The position numbers are program-made. A stretch of DNA of 35,928 nt from Candidatus Nanohalobium sp. (GTDB lineage: Archaea; Nanohalarchaeota; Nanosalinia; Nanosalinales; Nanosalinaceae). The first letter of the stretch is position 1; each line of letters begins with the position of its first letter. Where the stretch lies: contig JBDGTY010000048.1 in the NCBI GenBank assembly GCA_042216335.1, positions 2,811 to 38,738 of the forward strand, read 5' to 3'. Positions 9,001 through 12,000 of the stretch are shown one piece after another.

Positions 9001-12000
9001 GAAGGTCTAAAAGAAGCACTTCCTAGTCGATATCTTTCCTCTGGATAATCGAGTTGTACTCGTCGCCGAATAGGTCGACTTTGCTTTCCCTCATTTTCTC
9101 GAATCCGAGTTTCCTGTAGAATCCTCGACCTATATCGTTTTCTTCCAGTGATTCGACCTTCAGGACTTTGATACTTTTCGGGATCTCTTCCAGTCCTTTT
9201 TCGAACATCTCTGTGCCGATGCCGTGGCCCCAGTAGTTGGGGTGGAGGTAGACGGCCCTGAGCTGCGCCTCGTCCTCATCCACGTTCACAAAGTCGTGGG
9301 TGTTGTCTTCGCCCCAGCAGAAGTTTATCGTACCAACGACTTTCCCGTCGACTCCGCCACCAGGAATAGAAGTTCGTCATCTTCGATTTTCTCGTTCAGT
9401 CGTTCTTCAGGGTAGTTTCCCGCGTTTTCCTCGAGTTTTTCTTCCGGGATTGTTCCGTTATAGGCTTCTCTCCAGGAAGCTTCGTTTAATTCCTGTATGT
9501 CTTCCAGGTCGGAGGATTCTGCACGGCGGATTTCCAGTTTCATGGAATCATGGAAGTAGAGAAAGTAGGGAAGGAAAAAGTTAGGGGAAGTTTAGAGTTC
9601 GACGTCCATGTCTTCGAGTTCTTCCGGTGCGAATCTCTGGAAGTTATCTTCCTGGTCGACTACGGAGAGTTCGATGTTGTTGAATTCGATGTCTTCTTCT
9701 CCCTGTTTGAGTGCGGAGACTGCGAGGTCGATAGCTGCCTGTTCATCCATGTCGTCTTCCCAGTTTTCTTCCAGGTGTTCTTTGGCATCTTCACGTCCTT
9801 TTCCGATGGCGATGGCTCTCCACTGGCTTAGTGTGCCGGAAGGATCCGTGTGGTAGACTGTTGCGTTGCCATCTTTAACTCCTCCTGCGATGGTCGAGAG
9901 TCCGTATGGTCTGACTCCTCCGTACTGGGTGAAGTGCTGGCACCTATCCGCAACAAACTTTGCTAGAACAGATGGAGGGATTTCCTCGTCGTATGTCATC
10001 ATGTGTTTCTGGGCCTCGTTCCGTGCCTCCTCGACCAGTGTTCTTCCATCGGCCACTAGACCTGAAGTGGCGACTCCTATATGTTCGTCGATCTTAAACA
10101 CTTTTTCCGGATTTCTGACCTGCAGTTCTGGAGTGCTTCTTGTGGCCGCGAGGACTGCTCCGTCCTCGTAGACTACTCCCAGTGCTGTTGCTCCTTTTTT
10201 AACCGCCTCTTTGGCGTATTCGACCTGGAAAAGCCTTCCATCGGGGGAGAAAGTAGTTATTCCACGGTCGTACTGCTGCTGTTGCTGATTAGTCATCTGC
10301 ATGTTTAATGGACACCTTTAGAATTGTATATGGAAACGTTCCATTGGAAGATTTATTAACCTGATCCGAACCCTCTCGGAAGCCTTTTTTAGGATTACAC
10401 CCAAACCTCTCAAACAGGGATGAACGCAGCCCAACATAGCTGCCGACCATTGAAAGAGCCCATGCACCCTGAATGCGGCAAGATTGTTCGAACGAGTCTT
10501 CATTTGGTCCACTAGCTCAGGGGTTAGAGCACCGTCCTTATAAGGACCTCGCGTTGAAAAACATGCTGAGACAATGCCAGCGCGTTGCCTCCGTAGGTGA
10601 GGCGGCGGTCCCGGGTTCGAATCCCGGGTGGACCAGTGGCGTTTCTCTTTTCTGCCCTCTAGAAGATCATCTTTTTCAGTTCTGTCTGTGAAGATGGTAA
10701 AGGCCTAGGAATGCTGCTGTGAATATGATGTTGAGCCAGGCCTTGTAGTTCCACTCAATATTTTCCTCTACTATCTTTGCTGTTGCTGGATCTGGCAAAA
10801 AACCGGTGTTTAGGAACAGGAAGTGTACAAGCACACCTACTATTACAGCTGCGGCGAATATCATTGCTGAAAGGATCGCAGCGAACTTCTTGCCATAGTA
10901 TTCTCTGTAGGCATCCATTATCGGAGGCACGATCAAATCTGCATAGATGTACGAAAGTACAGAGCCAAACGGAAATCCTTTCGACCAGAGTACTGCTCCG
11001 AATGGAACATTCCCTACGGAACAGACGAATGTTGCTATGCCGATGACTGTGCCGACTATTGCGGACCAGAAGATGAAAGCTGGAAGTCCTAGGATCTGTC
11101 CGCCCAGCAATGAGGTCCAGACCGACTGAGGTACGAAAGCACCGATTATACCGGCCAGAACAAATCCTATGATTATGTCTTCGTAGAGCATGCCCCATTC
11201 CTTCCATTGTTTGTCGGCGAGTTTCTTCCAGCCCTTTAGACTTGTGAGGTTCTCCCAAAAACCGACATTCACATCTTTCGGATCGAAACTTTCCTTGCAG
11301 CTCTTTGAACAGAAGTAGAACTTCTCGCCGTCAATTTCCTCACTGTACTCTGTTTCCTCAGGATCTACATCCATGCCGCAGACCGGATCAGTAACCTTCT
11401 CAGCTCCAGAGCCGGCGTTCTCCCTCGCTTTCTCGATCACTTCATCAGGCACCAGGTATCGGAAACCTACAGCCATGAGGCATATCAGGGCAAGGCCCCC
11501 GATGAAGTCTGCGACTAAAAACTGCCATCCGAGTAGTATGTAGATTACAACTCCGATCTCAATAACAAGATTAGTTGAGGCAAACATGAAGGCACCAAGG
11601 CTTGAACCTGCTGAAGCACCTTTCTTAAACAGGTTTTTAGCGGTAGCAATCGCGCTGTAGGAACAGGAAGACGATACGAATCCGAAGAACGTTGCAAGGC
11701 CTAGAGATTTGAGGCCTTCATCTTCAAGTTTCTCCGATATCTTGGATTTCGGTATCCATGCCTCTACTGCTCCGGCGATGGAGAATCCAAGCACCAGTGC
11801 CCACCAAGTGATCCAGCCCATATAGATGGCGGTGTGAGCTGCATCAATACCGTTCGTGATCAAGAAGTCCATAACGGGCTTAGTGGTCGTGTAAGCCCCG
11901 GAGAGTACTGCGAGGACTGCTATCACGACAATTGTGAGGTACTCGTATCTCTCCATATAGTTGTCTTGATGCAGTACTGGTTTAAAATTTCCTTACCTTG

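Follow-up and report, generated by a model that had tools for sequence, protein, structure and literature searches.

The window, a stretch of 35,928 nucleotides, carries what is most probably a working gene of a Nanohaloarchaeon for the isoleucine tRNA that reads AUA (probability about 0.88). The genome (G000) is 1.02 Mb in size and 96.2% complete, its assembly contains 2,733 N, and its nearest named relatives are Ca. Nanohalobium. It was compared with 69 relatives, and the resulting 70 genomes cover the order, with which the phylum is coextensive. They fall into five families, with 50 genomes in f1 (including G000), one each in f2 and f3, 10 in f4 and 8 in f5. One relative from the same genus, G047, is a closed genome of 973,463 bp. 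In 720 long open reading frames of G000, AUA makes up 34.6% of all isoleucine codons (20.4 per 1000 codons), in line with the 35% given by the survey's finding, and in G047 its share is 36.1%. The features of the locus are as follows.

10506–10635, plus strand (contig C43:13316–13445): tRNA-Ile(UAU) gene, anticodon TAT, from Rfam and from ARAGORN with introns
10506–10542, plus strand: 5′ exon, nucleotides 1–37, from Rfam, ARAGORN with introns, and the sequence
10539–10541, plus strand: anticodon T34 A35 T36 (UAU), complementary to codon AUA, from the sequence
10542, plus strand: A37, from the sequence
10543–10599, plus strand: intron of 57 nt at canonical position 37/38, from Rfam, ARAGORN, and sequence comparison
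10600–10635, plus strand: 3′ exon, nucleotides 38–73, from the sequence and the Rfam alignment
10642–10653, plus strand: T-rich tract TTTCTCTTTTCT, 7 nt 3′ of the gene, from the sequence

The segment at 10506–10635 (+) matches the Rfam model RF00005 with 52.3 bits over the complete model (positions 1–71; gathering score 29, E 1.3e-08), and the alignment contains a 58-nt insertion within the anticodon loop. ARAGORN calls a tRNA-Ile(tat) with a 57-nt intron when introns are allowed, and makes no call at this place in its default mode, which excludes them. The survey had described an intron-containing tRNA-Ile with the anticodon UAU, and both programs bear this out. The 5′ exon contains the acceptor strand GGTCCAC, the D arm, the anticodon-stem strand CCGTC and the loop from C32 to A37. 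The intron starts with AGGAC, contains an internal hairpin and has the 3′ end TAGG-TG. The 3′ exon consists of A38, the strand GGCGG, the variable loop, the T arm, the acceptor strand GTGGACC and the discriminator A73, where it terminates; CCA is absent from the gene sequence. The T-rich tract that follows is likely an archaeal transcription stop. A73 and A37 are isoleucine identity elements, and together with the anticodon they suggest that the tRNA has isoleucine identity.

At least 55 of the 70 genomes retain the gene, which was found in four of the five families, where the survey had claimed at least three. The anticodon-arm/intron signature CCGTCCTTATANGGA occurs exactly in 55 of the 70 genomes (42 of 50 in f1 including G000, 7 of 10 in f4, and 6 of 8 in f5), and the exact count for CCGTCCTTATA followed by NGGA is 55 of 70. 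These counts comprise exact matches only, all of which coincide with tRNA-homologous places, since a control with the reversed pattern gave 0–3 matches per genome when up to one mismatch was allowed. The only f2 genome (G001) has a diverged tRNA with the loop CTTATA, A73, and two introns, one in the D loop and one at 37/38. In f3, which is represented by a single genome that is 61% complete, the search found no tRNA-Ile(UAU), and in G060 only the 3′ half is present, at a contig end.

Several candidates were set aside in reading these copies. BLAST matches in G002 (f3) and G008 (f4) are actually tRNA-Thr(GGT) and tRNA-Ser(TGA), respectively, and an ‘Ile tat’ of G001 (in L221), whose acceptor is Thr-like and whose discriminator is U73, is read as Thr(UGU) containing an unusual intron. 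Conversely, orthologues that ARAGORN labels ‘Ser aga’, ‘Asp atc’ and, in three cases, ‘Tyr ata’ are all Ile(UAU) by sequence.

In 47 copies from three families, the seven acceptor and five T-stem pairs are all Watson-Crick, with no mismatch in 564 stem-pair cells, and the discriminator is A73 in every copy. Double, compensatory changes occur at pairs 2:71, 3:70, 6:67, 7:66, 49:65 and 50:64, the first four of which substantiate the acceptor-stem covariation reported earlier. A smaller alignment of 18 copies gives the same outcome for stem pairing. Between G047 and G000, the mature tRNA is identical at 73 of 73 positions and the 5′ exon is 100% identical, while the intron differs. Throughout the phylum, the tRNA-Ile(UAU) gene is therefore under strong purifying selection, accompanied by compensatory changes.

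Each of the 48 copies read, which come from four families, has the intron at 37/38, while in other tRNAs introns are gained and lost even inside the genus. The orthologous introns are 37–146 nt long and start with NGGAC/T in 47 of 47 copies. The survey had given an invariant loop CTTATA[A/C]; the six letters CTTATA stand, while the seventh is not a loop base but the first base of the intron, for which relatives have A, C or T. After splicing the loop would read CUUAUAA, since A38 lies immediately before GGCGG in all 47 copies. Four intron nucleotides, separated by 2 nt from the 3′ splice site, can pair with C32–A35, at all four positions in 31 copies and at three of four in the other 16, which would give the central 4-bp helix of a bulge-helix-bulge, and the internal hairpin shows compensatory changes among the copies. 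A strict bulge-helix-bulge was not obtained by free folding, RNAalifold or constrained folding.

Both enzymes for processing such a precursor are encoded in G000, namely EndA (C10:9728–10009, 92.6 bits) and RtcB (C6:208–1497, 535.6 bits). The pre-tRNA would be transcribed, its 57-nt intron cut out at 37/38 by the archaeal splicing endonuclease, and the halves joined by RtcB, after which CCA would be added. IleRS is then predicted to charge the mature 73-nt tRNA, the U34 of whose U34-A35-U36 anticodon would pair with the A in AUA. The usual archaeal route, in which C34 of tRNA-Ile2(CAU) is converted to agmatidine by TiaS, is absent from the lineage. In the one RNA run that contained part of the stretch (oligo-dT), 4% of the sampled words were present; the only contig continues from the 5′ exon into the intron of a relative and shows no spliced joint. 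In DNA contigs, the exons are present with other introns between them.

The canonical archaeal system, tRNA-Ile2(CAU) with agmatidine made by TiaS, does the same job of reading AUA as isoleucine without reading AUG, and its two components are missing here. The survey had found no TiaS in the genome or its relatives, and this extends to the full set. No genome of the 70 has a TiaS_TCKD match above the cut-off of 27 bits (the best reaches 13.9), and the eight single-contig relatives are likewise without one. The same search is positive in four of four archaeal control genomes and in four of five non-DPANN archaeal MAGs. For TiaS_FLD there is one weak frame in G000 and nothing in the 69 relatives. 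This frame (C58:62–631, minus strand) encodes 189 acid-rich amino acids and scores 23.2–23.8 bits against a cut-off of 21; the values obtained earlier for both domains (23.8 bits for FLD, none for TCKD, four of four controls) were all reproduced. The frame is not TiaS, as only FLD positions 30–112 match, it has no TCKD or other domain, and no relative has it. Both TiaS domains are thus absent from the 70 genomes. In addition, no TilS above the cut-off was found in five genomes, the best frame being NcsA-like.

G000 has two CAU tRNAs only, an initiator and an intron-containing elongator tRNA-Met, as a recount of the survey's figure also gave. The first of the two combines A1:U72 with an anticodon stem closed by three G:C pairs, and is presumably the initiator on these grounds. 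The tRNA set of G000 is incomplete, with many tRNAs at contig ends, and the survey had raised the possibility of an unassembled third CAU tRNA; none was found in the closed genome G047, which after manual correction has 39 tRNA genes for all 20 amino acids and again two CAU tRNAs, initiator and elongator. A loose tRNA scan produced 328 candidates that were nearly all noise, but strict acceptor and T-arm scans were usable. The strict T-arm scan of G047 yields 41 sites; 38 fall within the 39 known tRNAs, and the remaining three are not tRNAs. ARAGORN labels are often wrong where introns are non-canonical, and four G047 tRNAs are mislabelled: by sequence, ‘Ile aat’ stands for the initiator, ‘Ser gga’ at 616694 for Ile(GAU), ‘Val cac’ for Leu(CAA), and ‘Ser gct’ at 569564 for Cys. 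As far as tRNA detection reaches, given these labels and a two-intron initiator that Infernal missed, there is no tRNA-Ile2(CAU) in G000 or G047, and no third CAU tRNA in either.

Two explanations would deprive the UAU tRNA of its role. A tRNA-Ile2(CAU) that is split, permuted or interrupted by several introns might have escaped detection and be modified at C34 by an enzyme other than TiaS or TilS, which would leave the UAU tRNA an auxiliary. The failures of tRNA finders just described, together with the incomplete G000 set, lend this some weight, but it is very unlikely in view of the T-arm sites of the closed genome, the strong conservation of the UAU tRNA throughout the phylum, and the failure to find TiaS and TilS. 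It is even harder to believe that the gene is a relic or remains unspliced, and that AUA is decoded with a tRNA or enzyme of the haloarchaeal host. We know of no tRNA import between archaeal cells. The faultless stem pairing with six compensated pairs, the identity of exons within a genus in which introns diverge, the presence of the gene in at least 55 genomes, and the encoded EndA and RtcB all argue against a relic, for which one could cite the description of Nanohaloarchaeota as host-dependent symbionts (PMC6642349) and the fact that mature tRNA was not seen in the single oligo-dT run.

If tRNA-Ile(UAU) does read AUA, the question becomes how it avoids AUG. Mutants of tRNA-Ile carrying U34 are reported to be poor substrates of IleRS in Haloferax volcanii and to bind AUG as well (PMC3895270). 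An adaptation must therefore exist in nanohaloarchaea, and we infer that IleRS, the ribosome or both have adapted in a way that prevents misreading of AUG. One possible solution, which we regard as rather unlikely, is that U34 has an Elp3-dependent 5-substituent (cm5U-derived, possibly cnm5U), with or without 2-thiolation, that enables AUA reading. Elp3 is present in G000 (637 bits, cut-off 350) with a match in all 49 f1 relatives, and an NcsA-like PP-loop enzyme is encoded at window positions 1406–2353; to our knowledge, however, 2-thiolation occurs only in tRNAs with U35. Moreover, no Elp3 exceeds the cut-off in the single genomes of f2 and f3 or in the 10 genomes of f4, and yet f2 and f4 keep tRNA-Ile(UAU). 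The Haloferax mutants do acquire cnm5U, but tRNA-Ile with cnm5U34 is reported to bind AUG and AUU too and to slow growth (PMC3895270), which leaves specificity unexplained. Because two families keep the tRNA without Elp3, and because the haloarchaeal cnm5U34 tRNA-Ile also binds AUG, we lean tentatively, at somewhat less than even odds, toward an Elp3-independent solution, in which an unmodified or ribose-modified U34 would be accommodated by a co-adapted ribosome and IleRS. The bacterium Mycoplasma mobile offers an analogy: its tRNA-Ile2(UAU), too, reads AUA with U34 after loss of the C34-modifying enzyme, in that case TilS, and it is reported that its U34 is unmodified, that Arg865 of IleRS recognizes UAU, and that its own ribosome rejects AUG (PMC3575796).

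Earlier publications established the principle of AUA reading by tRNA-Ile(UAU) without TiaS in Nanoarchaeum, Korarchaeum and ARMAN, and its extension to a whole phylum is added here. Nanoarchaeum equitans and Korarchaeum cryptofilum are described as having a genomic TAT anticodon instead of tRNA-Ile2(CAT) and TiaS (PMC6000648, PMC3895270, PMC3575796), as is the case here, and the korarchaeal gene is reported to bear an intron like the nanohaloarchaeal one. The two species were presented as 2 of 167 archaeal genomes and viewed as species-specific gains (PMC6000648), whereas the arrangement here is phylum-wide in a set of 70 species genomes. The korarchaeal tRNA reportedly resembles its own tRNA-Ile(GAU); the mature nanohaloarchaeal tRNA is closer to elongator tRNA-Met(CAU), with 75% identity versus 68% to tRNA-Ile(GAU). 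This difference counts to a small degree against the isoleucine assignment, and it is the sole hint bearing on the survey's wording that the tRNA ‘replaces’ the TiaS system, which is a statement about evolution.

Among other DPANN archaea, ARMAN-2, -4 and -5 (Micrarchaeota and Parvarchaeota) are likewise reported to lack tRNA-Ile(CAU) and TiaS and to have the tRNA-Ile(UAU) intron at 37/38, and the ARMAN-2 precursor is cleaved in vitro by its own endonuclease (PMC3239211). The ARMAN-2 intron, as described, is 25 nt long and lies in a strict hBHBh′ motif, while the introns here are longer and have a conserved inner hairpin, with the strict motif not recovered. Unlike ARMAN, the organisms considered here are halophilic symbionts in which AUA accounts for about 35% of isoleucine codons.

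Eukaryotic cytoplasmic tRNA-Ile(UAU) also combines a UAU anticodon with an intron at 37/38, and has pseudouridine at positions 34 and 36. Pus1 forms these pseudouridines only as long as the precursor still contains its intron. Neither G000 nor any of five closed relatives has the Pus1/TruA family (PF01416), and therefore the eukaryotic enzyme route is not available in nanohaloarchaea. The intron, kept in every copy read, has a shared start, can pair with C32–A35 including U34, and carries a compensated hairpin, which together raise the idea that it is needed for a precursor-specific treatment of U34 (or U36) that prevents AUG reading. We consider this improbable, though worth stating; such treatment could consist of a modification confined to the unspliced form or of protection from Elp3. 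If true, it would be an archaeal counterpart of eukaryotic intron-dependent tRNA-Ile(UAU) pseudouridylation, with a different enzyme because the Pus1/TruA family is absent.

In the literature, we found no paper that joins Nanohaloarchaea with TiaS or with agmatidine, the wider matches that were read concern agmatinase, and searches for DPANN with TiaS and for Nanohaloarchaea with anticodon returned nothing on topic by title. Predicted tRNA genes of Nanohaloarchaea archaeon SG9 have been published (PMC5829648) and may include tRNA-Ile(UAU). For annotation, the present results mean that the label Ile2 should be avoided for CAU tRNAs of these genomes, and that intron-aware tRNA finders are needed.

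For no archaeon has it been worked out how a U34 tRNA reads AUA without inserting isoleucine at AUG, and the organisms with known cases (Nanoarchaeum, Korarchaeum and ARMAN) are difficult to cultivate. An engineered U34 tRNA-Ile in Haloferax is reported to bind AUG and harm growth (PMC3895270). In Nanohaloarchaeota, about one third of isoleucine codons are AUA, and their hosts are haloarchaea with the agmatidine system. Some Nanohaloarchaeota are reported to be in laboratory co-culture (PMC6642349), which would make them a workable source of natural archaeal tRNA-Ile(UAU). This phylum as a whole is stably without TiaS, and the loss is not a one-off event in a single species.

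The genome under study (G000; 1,021,146 bases in 74 contigs, rated 96.2% complete and 0.63% contaminated) encodes at 10506-10635 of the forward strand an intron-containing tRNA-Ile with anticodon UAU, as the survey's finding had stated. The window spans C43:2811-38738 of that assembly. The Rfam tRNA model aligns to the gene over its full length, scoring 52.3 bits against a gathering score of 29 and placing 58 inserted nt in the anticodon loop, and ARAGORN calls the gene tRNA-Ile(tat) with a 57-nt intron once introns are allowed. In its default mode, ARAGORN misses this gene and reports only tRNA-Ala(GGC) at 19535-19608.

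Layout of the tRNA-Ile(UAU) gene, read from the sequence
Forward strand: acceptor strands GGTCCAC (5') and GTGGACC (3')
Forward strand: D arm, GCTC/GAGC
Forward strand: anticodon stem, CCGTC/GGCGG, with one G:U pair
Forward strand, last base at 10542: loop bases C32 T33 T34 A35 T36 A37
10543-10599, forward strand: intron
10600, forward strand: A38
Forward strand: T arm, CCGGG/CCCGG
10635, forward strand: discriminator A73
10642-10653, forward strand: T-rich tract after the gene

The gene does not encode CCA. The loop had been described as CTTATA[A/C]; CTTATA stands, while the seventh letter already belongs to the intron, as its first base, and the mature loop is CUUAUAA.

The order, which here coincides with the phylum, comprises 70 species genomes in five families (f1-f5), and DNA search finds places homologous to tRNA-Ile(UAU) in 58 of them. 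Copies were read by sequence in 47 genomes, namely G000 and 46 relatives (34 from f1, 7 from f4 and 6 from f5), and all 47 show CCGTC-CTTATA, then an intron, then A-GGCGG. The 14-base signature CCGTCCTTATANGGA occurs exactly in 55/70 genomes (f1 42/50, f4 7/10, f5 6/8, f2 0/1, f3 0/1), and in 26 of the 28 genomes with a completeness of 90% or more. The f2 genome carries a diverged tRNA with anticodon stem CCAGT, loop CTTATA, acceptor GGACCCG...CGGGTCC and A73, interrupted by an intron in the D loop and by another, of 27 nt, at 37/38; none was found in the single f3 genome (61% complete). The claimed conservation in at least three families is borne out by the loop as read in f1, f4 and f5, with the diverged version in f2. 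Moreover, each of the seven acceptor pairs and five T-stem pairs is Watson-Crick in all 47 copies, with both-sided changes at 2:71, 3:70, 6:67, 7:66, 49:65 and 50:64, and the discriminator is A throughout (47/47). A comparison within the genus shows identity at 73/73 positions of the mature sequence, and differences in the intron bring the whole gene down to 84-85% identity. Selection acts on this conserved tRNA. Two relatives hold two exact copies of the signature each, G043 (its contigs C43:134-148 and C46:11017-11031) and G035 (C22:11164-11178 and C31:6859-6873), which could reflect duplication of the gene or a bin in which strains are mixed.

The introns of tRNA-Ile(UAU) range from 37 to 146 nt and open with NGGAC/T in 47/47 copies. 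Four intron bases ending two positions before the 3′ splice site can pair with C32-A35, at 4/4 positions in 31 copies and at 3/4 in 16, and compensatory changes are seen at six pairs of an inner hairpin. Folding tools did not return a strict bulge-helix-bulge for this intron. EndA and RtcB are both encoded in G000. The intron is present in 48/48 copies read, whereas intron presence differs for 5 of 18 orthologous tRNAs (Leu GAG, Val GAC, Ile GAU, Leu UAG and Ser UGA) between G000 and G047, a closed genome of the same genus (973,463 bp). These 18 share the same anticodon by reading of the pairing table, six script-made cross-isoacceptor pairs being left out. The constancy of this intron against the variable ones is a lead, the other tRNAs having been compared within the G000-G047 pair.

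Introns of several other tRNAs open with a near-identical block, ACTGGTT[A/G]CGCTC[A/G]G. It is seen in Val GAC of G000 (contig C40:3005-3152) and in Cys, Ile GAU and Ala UGC of G047 (569564-569716, 616695-616849 and 818125-818326), followed by ..ACGCA in Val GAC, Cys and Ile GAU, and is not found in the tRNA-Ile(UAU) intron. The shared block looks like the mark of a single intron family spreading among tRNA genes. In addition, contigs from three sequencing runs of salt-lake and hypersaline-lake metagenomes (X1, X14 and X5) cover the exons 10506-10542 and 10600-10635 at high summed depth and lack the G000 intron, one contig having 67 other letters between the exons. Such coverage points to the co-occurrence of many strains that share the exons and differ in the intron.

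TiaS, the agmatidine enzyme that acts on C34 of tRNA-Ile2(CAU), had been reported missing, and wider searches agree. Its TCKD domain (PF22641) has no match in G000 and none over the cut-off in the 70 genomes (best 13.9 bits against 27), while the same search is positive in all four archaeal control genomes. The FLD domain (PF08489) gives a single weak frame in G000, at 23.8 bits, and matches in 0/69 relatives. That frame, of 189 aa, was rejected as TiaS, being acid-rich, without any other TiaS domain and without a match in the 69 relatives. Four of five other archaeal MAGs are TCKD-positive (Poseidoniales, Thermoplasmata, Methanobacteriota and Jordarchaeum). Five of five further genomes are negative (Aenigmatarchaeota, Micrarchaeota, Nanoarchaeota, one more archaeon and 'Kor3'), in agreement with the published picture for DPANN and Korarchaeota. 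Judged from these sequence searches, TiaS is absent from the lineage.

TilS was not found either, its best frame scoring 50-73 bits against a cut-off of 93.6; this candidate was rejected as an NcsA-like PP-loop enzyme. It lies at 1406-2353 (forward strand) and encodes a PP-loop ATPase of 315 aa whose N-terminus carries a LIM zinc finger of the TtuA type. NcsA, the tRNA U34 2-thiolation protein, matches it best at 301.5 bits, short of the equivalog cut-off of 500, and TtuA scores 167.7 bits.

As the survey had counted, G000 has two CAU tRNAs.

C10:6936-7010: initiator-type CAU tRNA with A1:U72 and GGG/CCC closing the anticodon stem, which we take to be initiator features
C40:3331-3512, forward strand: elongator tRNA-Met(CAU) with a 109-nt intron

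Because G000 has an incomplete tRNA set, in which a third CAU tRNA might have gone unassembled, the closed G047 was examined as well. ARAGORN gives 39 tRNA genes there; Infernal returns 32 matches with E no higher than 1, and 30 of these exceed the gathering score. After correction of four wrong ARAGORN labels by BLAST and by eye, the set covers all 20 amino acids, and its sole CAU tRNAs are an initiator with two introns and an elongator. A strict T-arm scan of G047 returns 41 sites, of which 38 lie inside known tRNAs and three are not tRNAs. No third CAU tRNA is found in G000, nor by these three methods in G047. The G047 initiator, at 156669-156815 (reverse strand) with two apparent introns, was missed by Infernal and labelled 'Ile aat' by ARAGORN; its orthologue in G000 is intron-free. 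The elongator intron (109-113 nt) is conserved between G000 and G047 (266443-266628) and contains, by eye, box C/C'-like (ATGAGG, GATGAT) and box D-like elements. In haloarchaeal pre-tRNA-Trp the intron serves as a cis-acting methylation guide, and the elongator intron may be a putative guide of this kind for its anticodon loop.

AUA makes up 4,929 of 14,253 Ile codons in G000 (34.6%, matching the earlier figure of about 35%; 20.4 per 1000 codons), counted over 720 non-overlapping ORFs of at least 150 aa each, and 36.1% of those in G047. It is therefore a major codon that needs an efficient reader.

The tRNA gene has a recurrent neighbour.

9592-10302, reverse strand: proteasome alpha subunit gene

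In named public records, the closest kin of this subunit are from Nanohaloarchaea, at 81-91% identity in Ca. Nanohalobium MAGs, 80% in Nanohaloarchaea archaeon SG9 and 67% in Ca. Nanosalinarum J07AB56. The proteome of G000 is acidic (D+E 18.2% vs K+R 11.0% in 720 long ORFs). At 18/22 nanohaloarchaeal loci of such named records, SG9 and J07AB56 among them, no more than 1.5 kb separates tRNA-Ile(UAU) from the proteasome gene, so the tRNA gene has been in public genomes for years. The tRNA genes of SG9 are predicted in PMC5829648, and tRNA-Ile(UAU) may be listed among them. A nanohaloarchaeal proteasome alpha gene (79% identity) also adjoins tRNA-Ile(UAU) at locus L051 (JBLGBK010000008.1), in a public MAG titled 'Colwellia polaris', an organism name that looks wrong. 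Downstream of the tRNA gene in G000, 10676-11956 (reverse strand) encodes an ArsP-type permease of 426 aa into which a YHS domain, a metal-binding domain, is inserted. At 9-80 (reverse strand), extending past the window start (C43:2801-2890), a tRNA-Ser(CGA)-like gene is represented by its 5' part and T arm. Its anticodon arm reads GCAGA-TTCGAGA-TCTGC and its variable arm is long; immediately beyond the window edge the gene enters a stretch of N, and it scores only 16.8 bits against Rfam.

The facts and the interpretation of the survey's finding, that AUA is read by a UAU tRNA and not by the TiaS system, both hold. tRNA-Ile(UAU) without TiaS has been published for N. equitans and K. cryptofilum, 2 of 167 archaeal genomes (PMC6000648), and for ARMAN-2, -4 and -5, where an intron at 37/38 is cleaved in vitro (PMC3239211). 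The principle is the same, whereas the nanohaloarchaeal case is phylum-wide; the literature searched showed no link of Nanohaloarchaeota to TiaS or agmatidine.

Elp3 is present in G000 at 637 bits and gives a match in 49/49 f1 relatives and in 7/8 f5 genomes, but does not exceed the cut-off in f2 (0/1), f3 (0/1) or f4 (0/10), so U34 modification chemistry differs between families of the phylum. Families f2 and f4 keep tRNA-Ile(UAU) although no Elp3 passes the cut-off there. The TruA/Pus1-family pseudouridine synthase (PF01416), found in 13/14 control genomes, is absent from G000, G047 and four further relatives with closed genomes (G052, G065, G040 and G032). Haloferax tRNA-Ile U34 mutants carry cnm5U and bind AUG and AUU as well as AUA; they serve IleRS poorly as substrates, and growth is slowed (PMC3895270). 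Mycoplasma mobile leaves U34 unmodified and owes its specificity to Arg865 of IleRS and to its own ribosome (PMC3575796). Taken together, the Elp3 gap in f2 and f4 and these two cases lead us to lean towards an Elp3-independent solution for U34, with a co-adapted IleRS and ribosome.
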